A stretch of 64,000 bases of DNA, taken from a virus. Within the stretch, counting starts at the first letter, position 1. Each line of letters starts with the position of its first letter. This document shows positions 3 to 59,357 of this stretch, in pieces. Under the pieces are notes generated by a model. The model was not told where the DNA came from and did not search any database. It saw nothing but the letters and a program-made list of their open reading frames with translations. A program made the position numbers and the translations under genes. The stretch covers positions 32,514-96,513 of the IMG/VR virus record IMGVR_UViG_3300008113_000016; one strand, given 5' to 3'.

Positions 3-2159
3 GCAACGGTACCAAACGTTGTTGGATTGACGGAAACTCAAGCAAAGTCTACTCTAACCACAAATTCTTTTGTTGGTGTTACAACAACAGAAACTTTGAC
101 AGCAGAGCAGTCATTAAACAATATAGTTTATGCACAATCTCCAAGTGGAGGAAACTCTGCTACAGTTTCTTCAAACGTTGCACTATCTGTTTACAGATGG
201 AATGGAAGTACCCCCGCACCAGTTACTACGACAACAACCACGACAACTGCTGCCCCAACAACCACAGCAGCACCTACTACATCTGCCCCAGGAACAACCT
301 CTGCTCCAAACCAAACATCTTCCGTAAGTAGTTTATCTCCTACAAGTGGGTCAACTGCTGGTGGTTATAGCGTTACAATTTATGGAACTTTTCCTACTCC
401 AATTACCAATATTTCGGTTGCTGGAACTAATATTGCTGTAAACAGTTGGAGCCAATCATCTTCTTCAATTTCTTTCCCAATGCCATCAAGATCTGCTGGT
501 ACTGTAGGAATTCAAGTCTTTAATGGACTGACCCCACTAATGTCTGAACTATCATTTACATATACATCTGGAACAACTGCTGCAACCAATGGACCAGTTC
601 CAAACGTAGTTGGACTTTCATATGATAGTGCATTTACAACACTTTATAATGCTGGTTTCCAGGTTGATGCCTCTGTTGCCAGTACAACTGTCGCTTCTAA
701 TGATCAAAAGGTTTACGCTCAAGCACCTTCTGGAAATAGCACAGCAACATATGGAACAACAGTTAATATTTATTTTTACCAATATAGTGGAACTACAACT
801 GCAGCACCTACATTAAAACTTTGTACTCAAGCAGATGTTAGTAACATTAACAATGCTTGTACTGTTGTAAATACTTGTAGATCATACGGAAACGGTGCTT
901 CTTGTACAACAGACCAAACTACAACTACTACAACAACTACTGCTGCTCCTTCAGGCGCAACATGGTACTGTACATACTCTGTTTGTAACCCATTCTCTGG
1001 ATATTATTCTACACAGCCATCAAACTATGGAACTTATTCAACGGATCAATCAACAACTTATGGTGGTGGAAGTTCTTACACTAAGATTGCTTGTAATACA
1101 ACCGCTTATAATATTTCTGCAGCAGCACAGGCTCCTTGCGAGTCAGTTGCTACTACCACTACAACTACAACAACTGCAGCCCCTACTACAACCACAACAA
1201 CGGCTGCTCCAACATATTATTATGCTTCTTGGTGTTCATATGGTCAATGCTACACTGACTATGTTTCTACAAGTTGCGCTACAATGAGAAACTTAGCAGA
1301 AGCAGATTCTGGTGGATCGTTTAGTGGATTTACATGCTCTACATCTGGATATCCACCATGCCCTGCTGCTTGTTCTGGAGGTCAAGTAACAACTACTACA
1401 ACCACAACAACAACCACAGCAGCACCAACAACATGGTATTGTACTTACTCTGTATGTCGTGGAACTTCTGGCGCATATATTACTAGCCCACAAGTTTATG
1501 GAACTTATTCTTCAAACCAAACGGCTACATCCTCTAGCGGTGGAAACACTACTAAGATTGTTTGCTATACAACTGGATACGATGTTACAGCAGCACAGCA
1601 ACCAGCATGCGAAGGATTTACCACTGCTGCACCAACTACAACCACAACAACTACTACATCTGCTTCTTGCGTTTGTGTATACTCTGATTATGGAACATAT
1701 TATTATTCACCACAGTGCTGTTCTTCTGGAGCACCAAGATCTGGTTCTTTAAGTGGGGTTACTTCTGGAGACTGCTGTCCTAACGTTAATAAGGCTACAA
1801 CTGCTGCTCCCACAACAACGGCTGCTCCTACAACCACTGCTGCACCAACTACAACTTCTGCATCTTGTGTTTGCGTCTATTCTGACTATGGAACATATTA
1901 CTTTGCTCCTCAATGCTGTCCAGCAGGTGCACCAAGATCTGGAGCATTAAGCGGAACAGCATCAGGATCATGTTGTCCAGATGTTGCAAAGGCTACATCA
2001 GCACCAGCCACAACTACAACAGCAGCACCTGCTACTACAACCACTGCTGCAGCGTCTGGAAGATTCTGTACTTCTGCTAATATTGCAAACCCATCAAATC
2101 CATGCTACAGTACATCTCAGTGCAGTTCACAAGGAAGCGGTAGTTTATGTTTCGTATAA
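3..2159 (+). CDS. 5'-partial PASTA + IPT/TIG-domain protein with Thr-rich mucin-like linkers and duplicated Cys-rich modules
   Basis: Frame open from base 3 (ATVPNVVGLTETQAK, a PASTA start); second PASTA VPNVVGLSYDSA; IPT-like VSSLSPTSGSTAGGYSVTIYG; TTTTAAP runs. Confidence 0.75.
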   Translation, partial: ATVPNVVGLTETQAKSTLTTNSFVGVTTTETLTAEQSLNNIVYAQSPSGGNSATVSSNVALSVYRWNGSTPAPVTTTTTTTTAAPTTTAAPTTSAPGTTSAPNQTSSVSSLSPTSGSTAGGYSVTIYGTFPTPITNISVAGTNIAVNSWSQSSSSISFPMPSRSAGTVGIQVFNGLTPLMSELSFTYTSGTTAATNGPVPNVVGLSYDSAFTTLYNAGFQVDASVASTTVASNDQKVYAQAPSGNSTATYGTTVNIYFYQYSGTTTAAPTLKLCTQADVSNINNACTVVNTCRSYGNGASCTTDQTTTTTTTTAAPSGATWYCTYSVCNPFSGYYSTQPSNYGTYSTDQSTTYGGGSSYTKIACNTTAYNISAAAQAPCESVATTTTTTTTAAPTTTTTTAAPTYYYASWCSYGQCYTDYVSTSCATMRNLAEADSGGSFSGFTCSTSGYPPCPAACSGGQVTTTTTTTTTTAAPTTWYCTYSVCRGTSGAYITSPQVYGTYSSNQTATSSSGGNTTKIVCYTTGYDVTAAQQPACEGFTTAAPTTTTTTTTSASCVCVYSDYGTYYYSPQCCSSGAPRSGSLSGVTSGDCCPNVNKATTAAPTTTAAPTTTAAPTTTSASCVCVYSDYGTYYFAPQCCPAGAPRSGALSGTASGSCCPDVAKATSAPATTTTAAPATTTTAAASGRFCTSANIANPSNPCYSTSQCSSQGSGSLCFV

Positions 2160-5730: not shown

Positions 5731-6224
5731 AAGGTATCTCACCACACTTTACTCAATACAGAAGATACTTCTTCTTAAATGGTAAATTACATAAAATGAT
5801 TTATGTTGACAAGGCTCAAAATCTTTGTCATGCTCTTTTGCTAGAGGATAATAAGTTAATGTCGTATATTTACTCTGACGTAAAGAAGATGCATAAAAAA
5901 GCATTTACTATTGGTGAGGTTGCATTATTGGTTAATCGACACAAGAATAGAATTAGAGAGGCTATGGATAACGACTCCTTGCCTTTTCCTCAATCTATTC
6001 CAGGTAAGAGAAAAACTTACATGTGGAGTGAAGACGAAGTTTTAGATGTAAGAGATTATTTTGCAAGCGTTCACAGAGGCAGACCAAGAAAAGATGGAAT
6101 ATCAAAGTCTTGGAATGTTCCAACCATAGAGGAGTTAAGGTCAAAGATGTTAAGGGAAACCACCTTGTATGTTCAAAACGATGAGGGTAAGTTTATCCCT
6201 TTGTGGAAAGCAGAGGGTTTCTAG
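5727..6224 (+). CDS. MerR-like HTH DNA-binding protein
   Basis: FTIGEVALLVNRH..., RGRPRK. Confidence 0.55.
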   Translation: MKGISPHFTQYRRYFFLNGKLHKMIYVDKAQNLCHALLLEDNKLMSYIYSDVKKMHKKAFTIGEVALLVNRHKNRIREAMDNDSLPFPQSIPGKRKTYMWSEDEVLDVRDYFASVHRGRPRKDGISKSWNVPTIEELRSKMLRETTLYVQNDEGKFIPLWKAEGF

Positions 6225-9965: not shown

Positions 9966-12900
9966 ATGTTTAACAACCATCACTCACACTCATACTATAG
10001 TTTGCTAGACGGATACTCTAGCCCACTAGAGTTGATGCAACGTGCAAAAGAAGTTGGCATGTCTTCTATGTCTATTACAGATCATGGTACTTTAAGTGGT
10101 CACAGAGATTTTCTTATGGCTGCAAAAGAAACTGGTGTAAAGCCAATCCTTGGTCTTGAGGCATATTTTACAACAGACAGAAATGATAAGCGTTCTAAGA
10201 AAGAAAGAAACGAAGATGAACAGGTTTATAATCACTTAATCGTTTTGGCAAAAAATGAAACTGGTTTATCTAATCTAAGTAAGATATCTGAGATAGCGTG
10301 GAACGACGGGTTTTTTACAAAACCAAGAATTGACTTTGATATTCTGGAAGAAAATCATGAAGGTCTTATAGTTTTATCTGGATGCATGAACGGAATCATT
10401 GCAAAGGCTATTCAAAACAACAACCCTTCTTTAGCAAAACAATATACTGCTTGGTTTAAGGATGTGTTTAAAGAAGACTTTTATATGGAAGTTCAGCCAC
10501 ATAACCCAGTAGAATTAAACATGCAACTTCTTTCCCTTGCAGATGAAATGGGAGTAAAGCCAACGGTAACCTTAGACTGCCATTATGCTTCTCCAGAAGA
10601 TCGGATTGCAGAAGAGATTATGCTTATCCTTGGAACGCATCCAAATGTTCTTAAGGAATCAAGTTTTGATGCAAGCAGAAAGATCAAGGACATTATGTCC
10701 AGACTTGATTACCTATATGGAGAAAGAAAAATGTCTTTCAAGGACTTAGACATTTATTTGATGGGTTACGAAGAGTTAATGTCAAAGATGAAAAAGTCTG
10801 GAATTGATCGACTAGACATGTTTGAGTCAAGCATGGAAATCTCTGATAAGGTTAGTAGTTATGAATTAAAGCAGAACCTAGACTTACTACCAATTCAGGT
10901 CTCAGACCCCGCACAGGAACTCCAGAGGCTGTCTTTTGCTGGTCTTAAAGCAAAAGGTCTAAACAATGATGAAGCATACCTAAAGCGTCTTAATGATGAA
11001 CTAAGTATTATTAAAGAAAAGAATTTTTCTGCATACTTTTTAGTTGTAGCCAACATGATTGGTTGGGCAAAGAATAATGAAATTATGGTTGGTCCAGGTC
11101 GTGGCTCTGCTGCTGGATCACTAGTTTGCTACGCTCTTGGAATCACTGACGTTGACCCAATAGAGCACGGACTTCTATTCTTTAGATTTATTAATCCAGA
11201 ACGTAATGACTTTCCAGATATTGACACAGACTACCAAGACTCTAGAAGAAATGAAGTTAAGGATTATTTAACAGAACAATATACTAACGTTGCATCTATT
11301 GCAACATTCCTTACATTTAAAGATAAGGGTGTTGTGCGAGATGTTGCAAGAGCCTTTCATATTCCACTAGCAGAAGTAAATAAGTCCCTTAAGAATGTTG
11401 AAACTTGGGACGAGTTTTTATCAAGCAAAACAACAGAAGAATTTAGGTCAAAGTATCCAGAGGTTGTTTTCTATGCAGATAAATTGCGTGGAAGAATTCG
11501 TGGAACTGGAATGCATGCTGCAGGAATAGTTGCATCTCAAGAGCCTATATCAAACTTTGCTCCTATGGAAACTAGAAAAGATACACAGAGTGACTCAAGA
11601 ATTCCTGTTGTTGCGGTGGATATGGAAAAAGCAGCAGACATTGGATTGATTAAAATTGATGCTCTTGGTTTAAAGACTCTTACAGTTATAAAGCAAACGC
11701 TAGATATAATCAAAGAGAGACATGGCAAAGAGATCAATCTATCCACCCTTCCACTTCACGATGCTGAGGTCTATGCAGATCTTAGTGCAGGTTTTACAAA
11801 GGGTGTCTTTCAGGCTGAAGCAGTTCCATACACAAATCTTTTGGTTAAGATGGGCGTAAGCAACTTTGACGAACTTGCTGCTTCTAATGCTTTGGTTCGT
11901 CCAGGAGCCATGAACACCATTGGAAAAGAATATATTTTAAGAAAAAAGGGTAAAAAGCAAGTAAAGTACATACATGATTTATTAAAACCATATACAATAG
12001 ATACCTATGGATGTATTCTCTACCAAGAACAAGTTATGCAAGCATGCGTACACCTTGGCGGTATGTCCATGTCGGAAGCAGATAAAGTTAGAAAGATCAT
12101 TGGAAAGAAAAAAGATGCTAAAGAGTTTGACCAGTTCAAAGAACAATTTGTTACTGGAGCATCTAATCACATCTCAGAGAAGGAAGCAGAGGCTTTATGG
12201 CATGATTTTGAGGCTCATGCTGGCTACTCTTTTAACAAGTCTCATGCTGTTGCTTACTCTATGCTATCTTATTGGACGGCTTGGCTAAAAAAATACTATC
12301 CGCATGAGTTTATGTTTGCAATCCTTAAAAATGAAAAAGACAAGGATGCTCGTACAGAATATTTAATTGAGGCTAAAAGAATTGGAATCAATGTTCGTTT
12401 GCCACACATTAATGAGTCTGACATTGACTTTAAACTAGAGGGTCAATCTATTCGATTTGGGTTGGGTAACGTAAAGTTTATATCAGAGAACATTGGTAAA
12501 AAGATTCTTGCTAACGCACCATACAAGTCTTATAAGGATTTTGTAGACTTTGCTATGGAAAAAGGATCTGGCATTAACAGCAGAGCAGTAGACGCATTAA
12601 ACAAAGTTGGTGCTGCTGCATTTAATGACAAGCCAAGAACTGGTGAAGAAAGACAAAACTATTATGAATATCTAAATATTCCAGAATTTAATTCAGAGAT
12701 TCCTAGATATATGGAAGCATACTTTACTCCACTAGAGGAGTTTGACGAGGTTTCTTGTATGATAGTTTCTGCAATGGTAAAGTCAATCAAACGTGGCAAG
12801 GGTTGGTCAAGAGTAGAGATTGTAGATAAGACTGGCAGCATTGGTGTTTTCCATGATGAAGATACAAACATTGAACCAGGAAAAATTTACATTATTTTAA

Positions 12901-51900: not shown

Positions 51901-52300
51901 TGAGTGATTCGCAAGCGTTCTTAATGGTATAAGTATTCATGCTGAATCTCTGATTATCTGGAATACCACTATTTGAGATATAATCAACCATATCACTAAC
52001 AAACTTATCTGTGTTAATTTCCTTTAATGCACGATTCATGTTTTCAATACGCCAAGACTTAATTTGTTCAATAAGATTATTAAACTTATCTTTGTCAGTT
52101 GCATAGGATATAACTTGTGAATCATTAGGTGAGTATCCGTCTCCAATTGGATTCCAACGACCACCACCAACTACATGCCAGTCAGACCATTCTGGAAAAC
52201 TGTATCCAGTATCATCTGAAGGTTCTAGTAATGCTGAAACTTCTGAGAATGCTTCTTCTTTATCTGGGGCTTCTACTATAAAATAATGAAGCGTATGCAT
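48956..52300 (-). other. cluster of about 11 small hypothetical genes, probably early
   Basis: Tightly packed minus-strand ORFs with AAAGG/GAGG RBS, including 49974-50126 and 50504-50680 absent from the track. Confidence 0.7.
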
Positions 52301-52330
52301 GAGGGGTAACCTTTCTGTTGTGAGGCTCTA

Positions 52331-52352
52331 AGTATACCAAAAGCCACTGACA
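52331..52352 (-). promoter_or_regulatory. PafBC/RecA-NDp-type promoter
   Basis: TGTCAG-TGGCTTTTGG-TATACT. Confidence 0.7.
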
Positions 52353-52430
52353 AATGCAATTCCCGTGACTTTTTTGCTTACCCCGTAATAGTGAGATTGA
52401 TCACATATCCCACCCGCCCTGCATTTCTTG

Positions 52431-52506
52431 CGATTCCGATGGGATTTGAACCCACGATCTCTACAGTGACAGTGTAGCGATTTAAACCAGACTAATCTAC
52501 GGAACC
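52431..52506 (-). tRNA. tRNA-Asp(GUC)
   Basis: Reverse complement GGTTCCG...CTACA-CTGTCAC-TGTAG...GGTTCAAATCC...CGGAATCG. Confidence 0.92.
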
Positions 52507-52512
52507 AAATGG

Positions 52513-52541
52513 TGAGCAGTTTTAAATCTTGCTCAGGATTT
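52513..52541 (-). ncRNA. H-type pseudoknot repeat, copy 1
   Basis: AAAUC-CUGAGCAA-GAUUU-AAAAC-UGCUCA. Confidence 0.6.
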
Positions 52542-52546
52542 TTTAG

Positions 52547-53557
52547 TTATGCGCTAACTAAAGTCTGCACAACTTTTAGCAGACGATTTTTTTCTGCATT
52601 GACCTGTGGGTCAAAACCAGAAGCAGCAGCAAGAATGCTTTCGTTGTTTCCACCACGAGCAGTGCGGAACCAATCAAGGCGTTCTGTGAGAGCGTTAAAC
52701 GCACCCCAAGCATTACCAGCAATCATTCCGTTAAATTGCCCTGTGTAAATATCGTTGATAATATCAACTTTATTTTCCCACTTCTTAAGCGCACCCTTTG
52801 TATCCTTCTCAGGCTTTGGGTAAGCAGCAAGAATAATCTTGTTAAAGTCTTGTGCGGTGATTTCCTTCTCAATCATAGCCTTAGCCATTTTATCGAATTC
52901 GTCCATATAGACATTAGCAAGACCAAGAGCCTCACGAGCAGCAACTACCTTGCCCTCTGCGGTCTGAGTGTGGCGTATCTTGAAAGATTGCTTTACGCCG
53001 TTCTTCTTCTTAATTGAATTAAGAGCAAGATTGAGAGTGTTAGCGCACACTACACGAACAGGTGTAATGCTTGCTTGAATTGCAACAGAACCGTCGTGTG
53101 ATGTGTTGATGAGCAAATAAGTCTTTACAACATCTGCAACACCGTTAGGGTCTAGAACAGTTTCACGCTCTAGTGCAATAGAACCGAAAACCACTTTACC
53201 CTTTTTGATTGAGCCAGCAGTTTCCCAACGACCTCCACCGTCGATGATGTTATCACCAAATGAGAATAAATCTTCATTCTGTAGTGGAACATAACGCTCA
53301 CCAACAACGCCAAGAATATCTGTGCCGTTGTCATATGGATTGGTGCGTGTAACCATAAATGAATTAGAAGCCTTACGATACCCGTCAGGGATAATCATAT
53401 CTTCTAACTTAACATTCCAGTTATTTAGTTTTGCTAGTGATAGCATTTCTGATGTATTTACTTCTTCTGTAAATACTGTGCCTAAACCGTGCCAAGCAGG
53501 TTCTCTGAATGAAGCGAAAGATGTTTCGCCGTTTTGTTGCTCTAAATCGTGAGCCAT
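52547..53557 (-). CDS. DUF932/DUF945 (TIGR03299-type) phage/plasmid protein
   Basis: PAWHGLG, Y..LQN, ETAGS...G, YLL..TSHDGS, RVVCANTL, RHT. Confidence 0.88.
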   Translation of the reverse strand: MAHDLEQQNGETSFASFREPAWHGLGTVFTEEVNTSEMLSLAKLNNWNVKLEDMIIPDGYRKASNSFMVTRTNPYDNGTDILGVVGERYVPLQNEDLFSFGDNIIDGGGRWETAGSIKKGKVVFGSIALERETVLDPNGVADVVKTYLLINTSHDGSVAIQASITPVRVVCANTLNLALNSIKKKNGVKQSFKIRHTQTAEGKVVAAREALGLANVYMDEFDKMAKAMIEKEITAQDFNKIILAAYPKPEKDTKGALKKWENKVDIINDIYTGQFNGMIAGNAWGAFNALTERLDWFRTARGGNNESILAAASGFDPQVNAEKNRLLKVVQTLVSA

Positions 53558-53586
53558 TTTTTTCCTTTCGATTGGTTGATGGTGCA

Positions 53587-53608
53587 ATTATAGCAGTCTG
53601 GGCTGACA
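53587..53608 (-). promoter_or_regulatory. PafBC/RecA-NDp-type promoter
   Basis: TGTCAG-CCCAGACTGC-TATAAT. Confidence 0.7.
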
Positions 53609-53687
53609 TATGTCAAATCGTCCTGTGAAAAATGTCCGATTTGCGTAATGCTATCTTATATAGTGAGACGGGGGCGGGTTGGAAAAG

Positions 53688-53771
53688 GGACAGTTTAAAC
53701 ACATGTCCAGGTGATGATCCAAGAAAATGACAATAAACTTGGATGGACCTTTTAACATCGTGTCCAGGATG
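53688..53771 (-). ncRNA. two tandem H-type pseudoknots separated by a hairpin
   Basis: CAUC-CUGGACAC-GAUG..GUCCA; AUCCAAG/CUUGGAU; CAC-CUGGACAU-GUG..UGUCC. Confidence 0.6.
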
Positions 53772-53793
53772 ATTAGATAGCCCCTACCTAAAT

Positions 53794-54270
53794 TTAAGAG
53801 GAAGCCCGTGCACTGTCCAAGGACCAATCATGAATCTCAACGTTTCCATTGCTAGATTCAATTGAAATCTCATCTTGCATTACCCAATCAATATCGAAGT
53901 CTTCAACTTCATCGAATGGTACTGAGACTGTTCCTGTAACTGTAAACGTTGCAGTGAATTCAATTTCCTTGGAAGGATTAATTCCAAAGTACTCGCATAG
54001 TTCACGCAGCACGTCGTCCTTATCATAGTTTGGGTTAGACCATTCCATGATGTGTTCATCAAGACCGTTAATCTTATCCTGCAGAACTGCATTATGCTTT
54101 GACGCTTGTCGTGCATTGTGTAGTTCCCATTCAATATTGCGTACCTTATCGATAGTATACTCAGGGTCTGAGTATCCATGAATCACCTTGTACGAGATGA
54201 GTGTGTCTGGGTTGTAAGGTACTGACAGTTCTTCTTCTGTCTTATATGTTTGTAGCGACATAAGGGGCAT
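53794..54270 (-). CDS. hypothetical protein
   Basis: 158-aa ORF downstream of a PafBC-type promoter (54298-54319). Confidence 0.65.
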   Translation of the reverse strand: MPLMSLQTYKTEEELSVPYNPDTLISYKVIHGYSDPEYTIDKVRNIEWELHNARQASKHNAVLQDKINGLDEHIMEWSNPNYDKDDVLRELCEYFGINPSKEIEFTATFTVTGTVSVPFDEVEDFDIDWVMQDEISIESSNGNVEIHDWSLDSARASS

Positions 54271-54480
54271 TCTTCTTTCTAGTAGGTTAGGGTCCTAATT
54301 ATACACGAACCCAGTGACATTTTCAACTTGTACCTTAATGAATGTGAGGAATATCACAAAAAGTCGGGCGCAGCATTTGCTGCGCTAACTAAATTAATTT
54401 ATCATGAAATCCAATCACCAATCAAAATTAAAAATAAAATAAAAAATGATAATCCAATTATTACACTTGCCATGTTAACC

Positions 54481-55200
54481 TCACTTCTTACTAGAGGAGA
54501 AGATTATATCAGATTTATTGAAGACGCACAAGGAGCAGGTTACACAAGCAGAACCCTCTTTGCTAATCAGTGGAATAGCCTTTTTATTTTCAGGACACTT
54601 TGCTCCAGGCTTTCCGATAATTTCTTTTAGAGTGCTTTGACCAATAGCAAAATTTTGTGCAAGGTATGCCATTTTAATACCATAAGTCAATTTAAGATCT
54701 GTTGCCTCTTTGATATTCTCACTGTCTGCAGAATAATATAATGAGAGATTATCTATATCCTTAAGCATAATTGCAGCAGACTTTACACGAGTATATACCC
54801 AGAATTGAATATCAGGATGATTTAAGATAATATGCTTCCAGGCGAAGGCATAATCGTCGCTAAAGAAATCTCCGTCCCAGTGGATACGGAATAACTTTTC
54901 AGCATTGCGCTTTTCACAATCCTTTTTGAAATCTGCAATCATCTCTTCAAGCAGCAATTCCATTGTGTCGTGGTCTGCGTCTTTTAGCAAATTCCAATTG
55001 TTAAGTAGATTATCTCTTACGCCCTTATATATCTTTTCTAGTTTTCCTGCGTAGCAGACTTTCTTACATATAGAGGTTTCACCAGGGCACGAGTAAGCCT
55101 TGCCACTAGGCAATCCAAAAGTGTTGGCAATTGTTGGGGTTTTTCCATTAGGGGAGACGGCATTAGTAACTTTCCTATCTTTAGAACGAATGAGGGGCAT
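54481..55200 (-). CDS. Gp88-family (radical-SAM-related) protein
   Basis: F.LP....CPG....C...CYA, FRIHWDGDF, FWVYTR, C..C.LC. Confidence 0.75.
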   Translation of the reverse strand: MPLIRSKDRKVTNAVSPNGKTPTIANTFGLPSGKAYSCPGETSICKKVCYAGKLEKIYKGVRDNLLNNWNLLKDADHDTMELLLEEMIADFKKDCEKRNAEKLFRIHWDGDFFSDDYAFAWKHIILNHPDIQFWVYTRVKSAAIMLKDIDNLSLYYSADSENIKEATDLKLTYGIKMAYLAQNFAIGQSTLKEIIGKPGAKCPENKKAIPLISKEGSACVTCSLCVFNKSDIIFSSSKK

Positions 55201-55215
55201 TTAGTGTTCCTTTCT

Positions 55216-55353
55216 TTAGCGATATTCTACCATACGGGACTGACGATGTTTTACCTTGCGAGAATAAGCCTTTTTAGACTTTACATAGGTAGCAGCATTA
55301 GACCTACGGAGATCCATAAGTTTTCGCAATTCTTCCTCAGTCTTTTTTCGCAT
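55216..55353 (-). CDS. 45-aa basic leaderless protein (not in ORF track)
   Basis: MRKKTEEELRKLMDLRRSNAATYVKSKKAYSRKVKHRQSRMVEYR; ATG 6 nt after TATACT. Confidence 0.6.
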   Translation of the reverse strand: MRKKTEEELRKLMDLRRSNAATYVKSKKAYSRKVKHRQSRMVEYR

Positions 55354-55531
55354 ATTGCAAGTATAGCAAATTTATCAGACATTAGCAAATCAAAACGCTG
55401 TGATAAATCTCACATGGTTTTAATGCTGTGGATAACCTGTGGATAAACCCGCCCGCATTTTTATGCATAGCAATTTATAAAAATACATTTTTTATTTTTG
55501 ATCCAAATAAAAAAAATAAATAAAAAAATGT

Positions 55532-55559
55532 TGAGCAGTTTTGCGACTTACTCAGGTCG
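55532..55559 (-). ncRNA. H-type pseudoknot repeat
   Basis: CGAC-CUGAGUAA-GUCG-CAAAAC-UGCUCA, followed by U-tract. Confidence 0.6.
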
Positions 55560-55585
55560 TTTTGTTTTAGCGTTGTGCTAAACTA

Positions 55586-56011
55586 TTACAAATAACGAGC
55601 AATAGCGTTGTATGTAGAAGTATTTACAACTTCCTCATCTGTCATTTTGAGGATACGAATTGCGTTCGTGATTTCCTCTTTTTGCTCGTTGTAAGTGTGG
55701 GTGTGAATTACCTCAAAATCCTTTTCAGGTTCTTGTGGGAAATCTCCCTGCTTTACTACAATGTCAAAATCAACATTGAGGTTGTTGTTCCAAGAACGAT
55801 AGTTAGTGCGAAGGTTCTCAGCCTTTGAGAAGTTCTCAATAGCCCATTTACCAACTTCCTTGCGCCACTTTTCCATAGCCTTAGTGTGCTTGGCTTCGTT
55901 TTCGCCTTGTGTAGCGTAGTTCTTTTCTAACTCAGCAAGGCGTGTTTCTAGTGCCTTGATTACTTTAGGGGTAGCGATTTTCACGCTAATAGATTTTCCG
56001 TTTCTAGCCAT
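55586..56011 (-). CDS. hypothetical protein
   Basis: Start MARNGK after AAAGGA; promoter at 56051-56072. Confidence 0.7.
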   Translation of the reverse strand: MARNGKSISVKIATPKVIKALETRLAELEKNYATQGENEAKHTKAMEKWRKEVGKWAIENFSKAENLRTNYRSWNNNLNVDFDIVVKQGDFPQEPEKDFEVIHTHTYNEQKEEITNAIRILKMTDEEVVNTSTYNAIARYL

Positions 56012-56476
56012 TTTGTTTCCTTTTCTGTTGAGGGTTTGTCTTGTAGGGGTATTATAGCAGGGGCTACTGACAAGCAATAACCCCTGCTAATCTTATTAGT
56101 CTAGGGCTTCTGAATAGCAAGCGTCATAGAAACGCTTACTATCGAAGTTAGGGTTATCACTCTCAAAATAAGCACAGAACTCGTCAATGAGTTCCTCAAA
56201 TACAATTTGAGGGATTTCGTCTTTGTATGTGCTAAGGATTTCAGCCGTTGCCACATAGTCTTTGCGTGTCATCATTTTATTAGTTTGCCTTTCTTGTGCG
56301 ATAGTATTTGTAAGCCTTGTAACCTGCGTATGCTAATCCTGTTAGCAATACTGCGTTAGGTATGTTTATGTCAATCCATAATAGATTATCTACTTGGAAA
56401 GAAATCCACCAATTATTGCTTATCTCAAATAATACTTTGTTATCCATTTTTACCTGTCCTTTTCTTTTTTGTTAGT

Positions 56477-56504
56477 TGAGCCTTTTAGACACTTGCTCAG
56501 GTGT
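56477..56504 (-). ncRNA. H-type pseudoknot repeat
   Basis: ACAC-CUGAGCAA-GUGU-CUAAAAG-GCUCA. Confidence 0.6.
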
Positions 56505-59357
56505 GTGGATAATTACTTATCCAAATCCTCAACTGACACAGTTGTCCAACGCTCTCCCTTTGGAGTAGTTAGTCGAACTCTCACCGAGCCAGATGAGTTA
56601 GATACGATTTCCTCAATCGTTCCTGTAACGCCACTTTTTAGAGTTGTGAATAAATCGCCAACCTTGTAAGTGTTTCCATTTACTGACATTATTGCTTCCC
56701 TTCGTTTGTTGTTTGTAGGCTTATTGTATCAGGTGCTACTGACAAATTACAGAGCACCCTCTTGGAACAGCCCAATTTCCAAATCTAGTTTTTCATTTTC
56801 GGTGGCTTCGGATAAATCTACCCAACCAGCACCATTTTCATCTATTCTAAAAATCTCTACATAACCCATTTGGTTTGTCCTTTCTGTATGTAGCAATTAT
56901 AGCAAAATCTTGGAGGCAAATCAAATCCAAAACGAAATAATCTCACATTTTGATACAAAATCCCTGTGATAAAAATCACACGGATCTTACTTGACTTACT
57001 GGCGAGTAGGGGGGCGGGTTTAGTTGAAACTTCAACTATATATTGCGATGATCCATCCCACTGTAATTAAAATAAATAAAATAACATCTAACAATTTTGC
57101 ATTAACCAATCGTCTTCAGGATAATATTTTGCTAACGTTTCATCGCTGTAGCATGCATGACACAATTGAATGTCGTCGTCAATTGGTCCTTCCATCCACA
57201 TTTTATTAGTACAATTTAAGCAAGTTTCATTCATACTCTTCTCCCTCTACTGGGTCGATGAACCATTGCAAGTGGTGCTGCTCTACAATTGCGTGTGCAG
57301 GTGCTTGCGTTGAACCTTTATAAGTAATTTGAAAATCACCAACCATTGGCATTTCAATCATACGATTATAATCTTCATCGTAGAATGCGTCAATTGCTTC
57401 AATACAAGGTTGAACCATTTCTGCGGGAACGGGTGGATAGTGATTACCCTTCAAGTGATAGAGTAATTGTGTTTCTAAGTCTAGAACGCTATCTGCTAAT
57501 CCAATTGCTGTAACTGATCCCATTATTATTTCTCCTCTATATCTGATACATAAACATCATTTTTATTTAGTAATCCGTATTTGATATTGCTATCAAACAT
57601 TTCAATAGCAGCGTCATAGTCCTCTGCTTCAACATTTATAAAACAAGTAAATTCAAACAGGGGCATTATTTCACGCTCACATTTCCATTAGTGTAGAAAG
57701 TCTTAGTATACATTTTACCCGTAGGGTCTGACAGGTTATAGGTTGCGTATTCTTTTGCGTCTCCATAATCAACGCACTTAGTCCAAGCGTCTACTGCTTC
57801 TAGTAAATCGCTAACACGCAAAGTATTTACAAGGCTTCCGTCATAGGAAGTAGTTAGAGAGTAATTGTATTCCATTATTACTCACCAACCTTTACTGCTA
57901 CTGTGCGATAAGTATTCTTGAACCCATACTGAGGCTTTACCTCTACAAGGTAAGAGTCGCAACCTTCATACCAAACTGCGTGAGGGTGCTTTTCTGCGGA
58001 GACAATTTCTCCACTTACTGAACGGGATACATAGCGTGTGCCTACAAGTAGGCTTTCGATAGAATAAACATTTGCTGACATTATTTAGTCTCACTTTCTT
58101 TTGTTGTTGATACGGACATTGTAGCAGATAGAACTGACAAGGCTTCTGCCTTGCTTGCTTGACGGGTGGCGATTACATACGCCTTGAATTCGTCTAGGTT
58201 CATTTTTGACCTTCTTTCGTTGTTGTTATAGTAGCAAGTATACCAAAATAGTCTGACATTATCAAATCCAAATTCGGACATTTGGGACACTTTCCGTGTG
58301 ATAAATCTCACACTCGTAAATCCAGTGATAAATCTCACATCGTACATAAAGGTGCAAAACGGACATTTTGCCCCCGCCCGTTTTTTATGCAGATCGTCGC
58401 ATTTTTATAAATTACAAAATTAATTTTTTAATTTAGCAATTATTTTTTCTGCTTCTAATTTTGTAATTATTTCATCTGCGAAAGCAATTGAAATTTCTGT
58501 TTGCTGTTTTTCTGTAAGCGATGCCCACAAATAACCAAGCAAATAGTGTGTGCCACTATCTACATTACCATTACGAATTTTTGTAGACATTTCTTTTACT
58601 TCTTGTAGCAATTCCATATTAGCCATTTAGCCACTCCTCTCCAGAAAAATCACTTTCCATTTGTGATAAATCTTCATCAGTAGGTGTAAAGAAATCCTCA
58701 AAATCTTCTTCTACTTCAGGGGTAGTAAAGAGAGAGGCATTATCTTCATAGTAGTTATCCCAAGAGTATTTTGGGGCTTCCCAAGACATTGTGTAAGTCA
58801 TTATTTATTCTCCATTTCTTTTACGCAATCACAAGGCTCACAATCATAGTCATTTTCGTTACCCCAAAAGATAACGCCTTGACCATTACATTCATCACAA
58901 TCAAAACGCATTAGAAAGTTTATCATTGAGAAACCTTCCAATCTCTCCACATTGGGAGGCGTTCAGGGTCAGTATCATCATACCAACGCTCTATGTTATT
59001 TTCACAAACTTCGCAGAATGTGAATTGGTCATCTCCTACCATTGAGATAGCAGACTTATTAGGTGTGTGAGATTTACACACTTCGTTTATTGTTAATGTA
59101 GTCATTTTGACCACCTTTCTTTAATTTCTAATACTAGTATCCTAACAGATACCACTGACAAATTGAGGTCTTATTTGCTTAGGCTCACTGTGATTTATCT
59201 CACATTTATTTGCTAAGGCTCATACCTTGCTTCTTTATTTAATTTTTCTTATACGGGAAGTATAGCACAAGGAAACGGAAAAGTCAAGTCCAGACACGGA
59301 CAAAACGGACATTTTTAATGTGATGTTCGTCACAGAGGGCGGGTGATCCAAGGCGGG

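Follow-up and report, generated by a model that had tools for sequence, protein, structure and literature searches.

Five copies of a compact RNA pseudoknot of the H type, about 28-30 nt long, lie just after the ends of putative early genes in a lake phage (IMG/VR record IMGVR_UViG_3300008113_000016, 96.5 kb), and the same fold, supported by covariation in both stems, belongs to a very widespread family for which no Rfam 15 match exists even at E <= 10 and no describing paper was found. We tentatively suggest that it caps or marks the 3' ends of phage messenger RNAs. The analysis started from a 64,000-nt stretch of the record (the window). A preliminary description had reported five dispersed pseudoknots of about 28 nt, with compensatory changes, at the 3' ends of early genes on the minus strand of this window, and this observation was confirmed at every coordinate. 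Its functional interpretation, by contrast, is only partly supported, as detailed below.

Identification of the five copies and their structural support

Each of the five elements possesses a stem 1 of 3-5 bp closed by an invariant C-G, an 8-nt loop CUGRRYAN, an A-rich linker of 5-7 nt and a 3' strand of 5-6 nt that is complementary to loop positions 2-7 (Table 1). A tight descriptor search of the whole 96.5-kb genome found these five plus two weak GU-rich hits, whereas Markov shuffles gave a mean of 1.0 hit with a stem 2 of at least 5 bp. A covariance model built from copies of other phages found exactly these five, at E values from 3e-13 to 2e-5, with the next hit at E 0.24, indicating that they are the only copies in the record. 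The label of early genes given in the preliminary description is plausible because many small ORFs in the region each possess a sigma-70-like promoter, but it is inferred from sequence alone.

Table 1. Pseudoknot copies and the adjacent tRNA gene (window coordinates).
Feature	Position	Strand	Upstream gene	Structural details	Model score	Surroundings
Copy 1	52513..52541	-	DUF932 gene; 5 nt after TAA	Stem 1, 52541-52537 with 52528-52524; loop, 52536-52529; linker, 52523-52519; stem 2 3' strand, 52518-52513	53.5 bits, E 3e-13	Ends 6 nt before tRNA-Asp; position conserved in nearly all 80 relatives
Copy 2	56477..56504	-	58-aa gene; 8 nt after TAA		38.8 bits	29 nt before the ATG of the next gene (56447); no room for a promoter, so internal to an operon
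Copy 3	55532..55559	-	163-aa gene (56077-55586); 26 nt after TAA	Stem 2 with a G-U wobble	46.3 bits	Long T-rich run 3 nt downstream (may also terminate transcription); homology blocks with relatives end here (71 HSP ends in 55600-55501)
Copy 4	53744..53771	-	158-aa gene (54270-53794); 22 nt after TAA	Stem 2 of the GGAC/GUCC type	27.6 bits, E 7e-6	Gene module has almost no homologues in the relatives yet still ends in the element
Copy 5	53688..53713	-	Second of a tandem pair, 30 nt after copy 4; about 80 nt after the stop codon	Stem 1 of 3 bp; stem 2 of the GGACA/UGUCC type	26.3 bits, E 1.6e-5	Followed by a C-rich stretch, then a consensus promoter at 53616-53587
tRNA-Asp(GTC)	52430..52506	-				Immediately downstream of copy 1; RNase P cleavage at its 5' end would leave the upstream mRNA ending 6 nt after the pseudoknot

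Next, we asked whether the covariation seen within five copies holds in independent data, and it was borne out on hundreds of independent copies. Stem 1 pairs in 131 of 132 exact-core copies with three or more pairs and dozens of different sequences. On 79 distinct sequences, the two middle stem 1 pairs show all four Watson-Crick types with one mismatch each; 0 of 500 shuffles reached the observed score, and slid controls collapsed to 23-39% paired. Stem 2 was tested on rows chosen only by their 5' half. Thirty-two rows with minority stem 2 sequences (10 types) pair with their own 3' strand, whereas only 2 would pair with the dominant strand and random partners gave a mean of 4.2 and a maximum of 10. 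In addition, G-U wobbles are common, with 118 copies of the GAGUA/UGCUC type, and the strand bias is 367:1 in relatives, both pointing to RNA rather than duplex DNA. The geometry fits classical pseudoknot rules: a one-nucleotide loop 1 (C) crossing the deep groove of a 6-bp stem 2 is the optimum, an A-rich loop 3 (consensus AAAAC) lies along the minor groove of stem 1, and G is avoided at +2 and +3, where it would pair with loop 1. Loop lengths fit coaxial stacking of the two stems, with a single variable nucleotide at the junction (A 264, U 197, C 41 and G 8 of 510 copies; 52%, 39% and 8% for A, U and C).

Distribution and genomic context

The element is not special to this phage, a point that could not be seen from the window alone, and the same fold occurs in hundreds of unrelated phages. 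More than 118 IMG/VR contigs carry it, and cultured carriers are Cyanophage S-RIM4, Mycobacterium phage Labelle and Paracoccus phage ParKuw1. Carriers include a T4-like cyanophage, a T7-like Paracoccus phage, a Patience-like mycobacteriophage and lake actinophages; the element occurs in phages of cyanobacteria, actinobacteria, alphaproteobacteria and Clostridia. It is also found as 1-2 copies in some Saccharibacteria and Parcubacteria (CPR) chromosomes, and inside CRISPR spacers. This distribution argues for a self-contained function or a universal partner.

We then examined the context of 510 unique copies. Of these, 86% are intergenic, and the upstream gene is on the same strand in 469 copies against 32. 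The median gap between stop codon and element is 12 nt; copies typically start 4-8 nt after the stop codon, and the distance from the stop codon to the closing C is concentrated at 8-12 nt and is never below 7. By contrast, the distance to the next start codon is broad, with a median of 107 nt, indicating that the element is anchored to gene ends. About 20% (103 copies) lie 2-13 nt before a same-strand tRNA, of which 98 are Asp and the others include Glu, Cys, Asn and Leu. Within the window, four of five early units end in the element followed by the next promoter, only one classical terminator lies in the 5-kb region, and homology blocks with relatives start at promoters and end at the element. 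The flanking genes are DUF932, GP88 and unknowns.

Possible functions of the element

Our preferred reading, held tentatively, is that the element is transcribed as the 3' tail of the upstream gene, folds once the terminating ribosome has left and acts as a self-contained physical end-cap and boundary for the mRNA. In this view, 3'-to-5' exonucleases such as PNPase, arriving from a downstream end, would stall at it, so that each early cistron keeps a defined, protected 3' end. The downstream end may come from RNase P cleavage at an adjacent tRNA, from weak termination in a following U-run or from an endonuclease cut. For copies before tRNAs, RNase P would leave a tail of 13 nt or less, too short for most 3' exonucleases. 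The fold (by covariation), the strand, the position and the distribution are established by our data, whereas the barrier function, including any exonuclease block or lengthening of upstream mRNA half-life, is inferred in the absence of transcript-end data. Several features sit uneasily with this reading. Predicted stability is modest (-0.2 to -2.9 kcal/mol for stem 1 alone and -4.5 to -5.6 kcal/mol for stem 2 alone), less than that of ordinary terminator hairpins, and a barrier would have to rely on tertiary or topological resistance. If stability were the aim, longer GC-rich stems would be expected, yet stem 1 stays short and AU-rich. Several unpaired or junction nucleotides (loop 1 C, the closing C-G and the loop 3 A's) are nearly invariant, suggesting recognition of a shape by a factor. 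Finally, one copy sits 2 nt after the 3' end of a tRNA, where a 3'-exonuclease block would hinder tRNA trimming. The exonuclease block and processing signal proposed in the preliminary description remain plausible conjectures that fit the context statistics and the tRNA adjacency.

The main rival, which we consider unlikely but not excluded, is a mimic of the tRNA acceptor arm that RNase P would cleave in loop 1, between the U and G of the CUG, to punctuate polycistronic phage transcripts. The putative cleavage site matches RNase P preferences in the literature, with an invariant U at -1, an invariant G at +1 paired with C, and A at the discriminator position in about 70% of copies. CC follows at +2 and +3 in 20% of copies against a 10% background, NCCA occurs in 7% against 1.6%, and copy 1 reads A-CCA. 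The element is repeatedly found next to genuine RNase P substrates, namely tRNAs of five identities, and RNase P is universal, which fits the host range. Moreover, a small H-type pseudoknot with a 3' RCCA is cleaved in loop 1 by bacterial RNase P in vitro, although whether this happens in vivo is stated to be open (PMC12710915). However, about 80% of copies lack CC and 93% lack CCA, and the in vitro substrate was not cut without RCC. There is no T-loop equivalent, and cleavage in loop 1 would leave the upstream mRNA with an unprotected 3' end, which seems counter-productive for an element anchored to gene ends. If this reading were true, the element would be a natural, widespread RNase P substrate, placed by DNA phages of many phyla after genes and next to tRNAs so that the host's universal tRNA-processing enzyme cuts their messages at defined points. 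This would be a phage counterpart of mitochondrial tRNA punctuation and the first in vivo case of RNase P acting on a simple mRNA pseudoknot.

It is similarly unlikely that the element is a pseudoknot-type intrinsic terminator, in which stem 2, stabilised by stem 1, would replace the terminator hairpin and RNA polymerase would release the transcript in a following U-rich stretch. The elements do occupy the slot between a stop codon and the next promoter, where terminators are expected. T is enriched at +4 to +9 (40-48%), and a run of four or more T's lies within 12 nt in 24% of copies against 1.6% upstream. The analogous PeSL cassettes of T4-type phages pair a terminator stem-loop with an early promoter (PMC2839356). 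However, 76% of copies have no U-run, the stems are weak, and a 2-3 nt A/C spacer usually separates stem 2 from the T's. In addition, about 20% of copies are followed within 2-13 nt by a tRNA and about a quarter are followed within 46 nt by the next start codon, leaving no room for a promoter, so transcription must read through; copies 1 and 2 are such cases. Single copies such as copy 3 may nevertheless qualify as terminators.

Somewhat less likely still is a binding site, decoy or operator for a host RNA-binding protein or nuclease, or for a phage regulator. Loop 1, the closing pair, loop 3 and most of stem 2 are nearly invariant despite free variation of stem 1, and the stems stay short and weak, as expected for a recognised shape. 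Against this, the diverse carriers are unlikely to share a dedicated phage regulator, and no candidate protein co-occurs, as the upstream genes are unrelated. Two specific proposals of the preliminary description belong here and are not supported. For a WYL-type sensor, no WYL domain was found in the phage record in a search whose control was positive, and occurrence in phages of at least four host phyla makes a lineage-specific sensor an unlikely partner. For a type III antitoxin decoy, ToxI-type RNAs are tandem direct repeats of about 34-36 nt that lie next to a ToxN-family toxin gene and are cut into units by it, whereas the five copies are 30 nt to about 1.8 kb apart and follow different, unrelated genes. 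No Rfam model matches either. A search of the 96.5-kb record for the ToxN/AbiQ family (PF13958) returned no hit, but the control genomes were silent too. Both are small pseudoknot-forming RNAs carried by mobile elements.

A translation insulator, which at the ribosome's mRNA entrance, when the stop codon is in the A site, would stop post-termination ribosomes from sliding on or re-initiating and so uncouple neighbouring cistrons, is doubtful. The sharp start 4-8 nt past the stop codon, never closer, is the spacing used by frameshift and readthrough stimulators, the element sits closer to stop codons than terminator-like hairpins in the same loci (a rough control), and the ribosome is universal. 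Nevertheless, copies before tRNAs or followed by a promoter have no downstream cistron to uncouple, stop codons are mostly the strong UAA (75%) and often doubled, and tight spacing is equally expected for any 3' element in a compact genome. Readthrough and frameshift readings are not supported, the element lying downstream of the stop codon in 403 of 403 measurable cases. Least likely are a preQ1-I-type aptamer, a minimal self-cleaving ribozyme (suggested by the multi-copy, intergenic, strand-specific distribution close to tRNAs) and a single-stranded DNA signal, as nothing suggests a cleavage site, while G-U pairs and co-orientation with genes on either strand favour RNA over DNA.

Relation to known elements and a proposed cassette model

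The absence of an Rfam match, named beforehand as a test of novelty, held both at the gathering threshold and, on 52300-56700, at E <= 10. Almost the same in size and architecture are luteovirus-type -1 frameshifting pseudoknots such as BWYV (28 nt), which share a short stem 1, a 1-2 nt loop 1, one junction nucleotide and an A-rich loop 3 in the stem 1 minor groove, and which resist mechanical unwinding far beyond their thermodynamic stability. The present element differs in having no slippery heptamer in a reading frame, no overlapping ORF and a longer stem 2 (5-6 bp against 3 bp). The preQ1-I riboswitch aptamer (RF00522) is likewise an H-type pseudoknot of about 30 nt with a variable P1, an A-rich tail and a 3' strand pairing into the P1 loop. 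However, its model gave no match, the junction here is one variable nucleotide rather than a loop with the ligand-reading C, stem 2 is stable on its own and, at 6 bp, needs no ligand, and the element is anchored to stop codons rather than placed over ribosome-binding sites. TYMV-type pseudoknotted acceptor arms and synthetic RNase P substrates (PMC12710915) share an H-type knot whose stacked stems imitate the acceptor/T arm, but the present element shows no anticodon-arm mimic and is internal to DNA-phage transcripts rather than at a viral RNA 3' terminus.

PeSL cassettes (PMC2839356) are likewise repeated short structured elements paired with an early promoter in the hypervariable early region, located at gene ends where module exchange occurs, while REP or intercistronic stabiliser hairpins share the same-strand position just downstream of a coding region and the idea of 3'-end protection. 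In contrast to these, the present element is a sequence-conserved pseudoknot rather than a simple hairpin and is shared across phages of different families and host phyla, and terminator activity, at most conjectural, is unlikely for many copies. In our tentative view, the element together with the next promoter would form a reusable promoter-gene-pseudoknot cassette, and early-gene modules would be exchanged at cassette boundaries.

Structure and covariation of the pseudoknot family

The preliminary description had reported five dispersed H-type pseudoknots of about 28 nt, with compensatory changes, at the 3' ends of early genes on the minus strand, and this observation was confirmed and greatly extended. 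The five elements share one plan: a 3-5 bp stem 1 of free sequence, always closed by C-G; an 8-nt loop of the form CUGRRYAN; a 5-7 nt A-rich linker ending in C or G; and a 5-6 nt strand complementary to loop positions 2-7. Stem 1 and stem 2 share no nucleotides, and the 3' strand of stem 1 lies inside the stem 2 'loop', so that the two together form an H-type pseudoknot. The 1-nt loop 1 over a 6-bp stem 2, and the 5-7 nt loop 3 over a 3-5 bp stem 1, fit the classical steric rules.

To examine whether these elements exceed chance expectation, we first used a loose pseudoknot descriptor, which was uninformative because it gave thousands of hits, as many as in shuffled sequences. By contrast, a tight descriptor found the five elements plus two weak GU-rich hits in the whole 96.5-kb record, whereas shuffles gave about one hit. 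A covariance model built from copies in other phages found exactly these five, in the window and in the full record, at E values of 3e-13 to 2e-5, and the next hit was at E 0.24.

We next searched for the exact core (10 nt, a 3-10 nt gap, then 11 nt). It hit more than 118 IMG/VR contigs, against about 0.4 hits estimated by chance. In the 132 copies recovered, stem 1 always pairs, through dozens of different sequences. On 79 distinct sequences, the two middle pairs of stem 1 show all four Watson-Crick types with one mismatch each. No shuffle reached the observed covariation, and sliding the partner by 1-3 columns collapsed pairing to 23-39%. Eighty related contigs were also obtained through the DUF932 protein rather than through the motif, and the first forty of them carry 193 model hits, 192 of which are on the gene strand. 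To avoid circularity in testing stem 2, we chose rows only by their 5' half plus stem 1. Under this selection, 32 rows with minority stem 2 sequences (ten different types, changing each of the four inner pairs) pair fully with their own 3' strand, while only 2 would pair with the dominant strand and random partners give 4.2 on average. G-U wobbles are common and, together with the strand bias, point to RNA.

A search of Rfam 15, a comparison that had been set as a check beforehand, returned nothing at the gathering threshold on the whole window and nothing at E <= 10 on the region, where only tRNAs and noise came up. A megablast of the 4.4-kb region against GenBank phages gave no match. Literature searches by topic and by literal sequence found no description of the element, although a 2023 catalogue of 10,006 viral structured-RNA candidates (PMC10690425) may include it.

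Carriers and genomic context

Three cultured phages carry the element: Cyanophage S-RIM4 (T4-like, Synechococcus), Mycobacterium phage Labelle (Patiencevirus) and Paracoccus phage ParKuw1 (T7-like). Each has one copy, in an annotated intergenic gap just after a CDS on the coding strand. Uncultured phages assigned to gut Clostridia (Christensenellales, Acutalibacteraceae) match as well. Species-representative bacterial genomes gave 45 exact hits. Some of these lie in chromosomes of Saccharibacteria and Parcubacteria, at gene ends, for example next to RNase Y or at the end of a SAM-riboswitch operon, and there they occur as only 1-2 clustered copies per genome. A genome-wide REP-like role in bacteria was rejected, because five bacterial genomes have only 1-2 copies, clustered together. 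Other hits lie inside CRISPR spacers flanked by array repeats in bacterial MAGs (L237, confirmed; L208, judged by its flanks), indicating that phages of these hosts carry the element too and that hosts target it. Still others look like phage contigs binned into MAGs.

The context of 510 unique copies was then analysed with rough greedy ORF calls and ARAGORN. Of these copies, 86% are intergenic, and the upstream gene is on the same strand in 469 copies against 32. The distance from the stop codon to the invariant closing C peaks at 8-12 nt and is never below 7; a control using terminator-like hairpins for stop-codon spacing was noisy and carries little weight. The distance to the next start codon is broad, with a median of 107 nt, and a quarter of copies are under 46 nt from it, which leaves no room for a promoter. 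A same-strand tRNA follows within 2-13 nt in 103 copies, mostly the homologous tRNA-Asp, but also Glu, Cys, Asn and Leu in unrelated contigs. The 3' flank is A (0.7), then C/A, then C/U/A, then U-rich, and G is almost absent at +2 and +3, where it would pair with loop 1. A run of four or more T's follows within 12 nt in 24% of copies, and NCCA follows in 7%, against 1.6% background. No gene family is constantly linked upstream of the element, as the upstream genes are unrelated.

Within the window, the putative early region consists of small units, each with a sigma-70-like promoter, and only one classical terminator is present. BLAST against the 80 relatives shows a mosaic of 'promoter - small gene(s) - pseudoknot' modules. 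Homology blocks start at promoters and end at the pseudoknot or tRNA; for the 163-aa gene, they end at copy 3. The modules carrying copies 2 and 4/5 are almost unique to this phage, yet still end in the element. This mirrors the PeSL 'promoter plus stem-loop' cassettes that mediate module shuffling in T4-type phages (PMC2839356).

Positions of the pseudoknot copies and of accompanying features in the window and in other records
Feature	Record	Position	Strand	Remarks
Pseudoknot copy 2	window	56504-56477	minus	internal to an operon, 29 nt before the next ATG
Pseudoknot copy 3	window	55559-55532	minus	ends a unit; followed by a long T-run
Pseudoknot copy 4	window	53771-53744	minus	tandem pair with copy 5, ending a unit
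Pseudoknot copy 5	window	53713-53688	minus	tandem pair with copy 4, just before a consensus promoter
Pseudoknot copy 1	window	52541-52513	minus	ends the DUF932 gene, 6 nt before tRNA-Asp
Classical terminator	window	54385-54368
Mosaic early region	window	52000-57600		homology with relatives starts at promoters at about 56050, 55200 and 53650
Modules almost unique to this phage	window	56700-56100; 54300-53700
G-rich or C-rich boxes of the GGGCGGG type	window	52440-52410; 53690-53665; 55455-55440		recur between a unit's end (pseudoknot or tRNA) and the next promoter; relatives have GC-rich words at the same place after a short T-run
Inverted repeat (8-nt GC-rich arm and its complement)	window	56090-56040		encloses the -35 and TGTCAG part of a promoter that ends in TATAAT; the same hairpin loop recurs about 35 times in the relatives
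Two adjacent DnaA-box-like words (TTATCCACA type)	window	55445-55420		in the AT-rich gap after copy 3; similar words follow the element in contigs binned as Flavobacteriia or Bacteroidia (L223, L226)
Pseudoknot	Mycobacterium phage Labelle, ON108649.1	56437-56472
Pseudoknot	Cyanophage S-RIM4, MK493321.1	45609-45644
Pseudoknot	Paracoccus phage ParKuw1, OQ376857.1	28605-28640
Pseudoknot sequence in CRISPR spacers	L237 and L208, bacterial MAGs (Tepidiaquacella; a Leptolyngbyaceae cyanobacterium)	L237:5343-6535; L208 around 6020-6044
Tandem SAM-I riboswitches	L202 and L228, Parcubacteria/Falkowbacteria MAGs	L202:890-1195; L228:3881-4187		head an operon whose last gene is followed by the pseudoknot
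Permuted tmRNA-like gene with a tag peptide (ARAGORN call)	L087, 98-kb viral contig	11748-12110		contig also carries the pseudoknot
Pseudoknot between tRNA-Ile and tRNA-Cys	L138, 190-kb viral contig with nine tRNAs	1690-1873		fills the 33-nt spacer; starts 2 nt after one tRNA and ends 4 nt before the next

Possible functions of the element

The element is anchored to gene ends, tolerates read-through and occurs in hosts from many phyla, with no shared phage protein. We therefore tentatively favour a self-contained role: a compact, probably triplex-stabilised knot that would define and protect the 3' end of the upstream message and insulate neighbouring units. In this view, the actual 3' end would be made by RNase P at a following tRNA, by weak termination in a U-run, or by an endonuclease cut. 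The fold, strand, position and distribution of the element rest on the analyses described here, while its function, including any protection of transcript ends, is inferred. The main weakness of this reading is the modest predicted stability, with stem 1 at -0.2 to -2.9 kcal/mol and stem 2 at -4.5 to -5.6 kcal/mol. Several unpaired nucleotides are also nearly invariant, and both features hint that a shape is being recognised.

The most interesting rival, although an unlikely one on present evidence, is that the element is an RNase P substrate. The loop offers U(-1)/G(+1), the base after stem 2 is usually A, CC(A) is enriched, and tRNAs are frequent neighbours. In addition, a small H-type pseudoknot with RCCA is cut in loop 1 by bacterial RNase P in vitro (PMC12710915). 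However, most copies lack CC. Termination, protein binding and translational insulation remain possible for subsets of copies.

The preliminary description had proposed exonuclease blocks, processing signals, protein-binding decoys resembling type III antitoxins, or ligands for WYL-type sensors; its structural inference is right, whereas this list of functions is only partly supported. The riboswitch, type III antitoxin, WYL ligand, readthrough and frameshift readings fail defining tests. Searches of the phage record for ToxN, in which the control was silent, and for WYL found neither. Stop-codon readthrough was rejected because stops are mostly UAA and often doubled, and the frame downstream of copy 1 runs into a tRNA, while -1 frameshifting was rejected because the element lies after the stop codon. 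Pairing to the 16S rRNA 5' region amounts, in an informal comparison, to only a 6-nt core match, which is within chance.

Implications for phage RNA biology

The element is a very widespread phage RNA pseudoknot that is absent from Rfam. A sequence-conserved 28-nt RNA fold shared by phages of cyanobacteria, actinobacteria, proteobacteria, Clostridia and CPR bacteria, yet missing from Rfam, would be one of the most widespread uncatalogued phage RNA elements. It provides a concrete and very small object, a 29-mer, for structural and biochemical work, and three cultured phage-host pairs now make it accessible to testing. It is also a practical annotation marker for gene ends and transcription direction in uncultured phage contigs. 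Cumulatively, the finding bears on the following: 1) how phages set mRNA ends and lifetimes in early infection; 2) how early-gene cassettes are shuffled; and 3) whether RNase P cuts mRNA pseudoknots in vivo.
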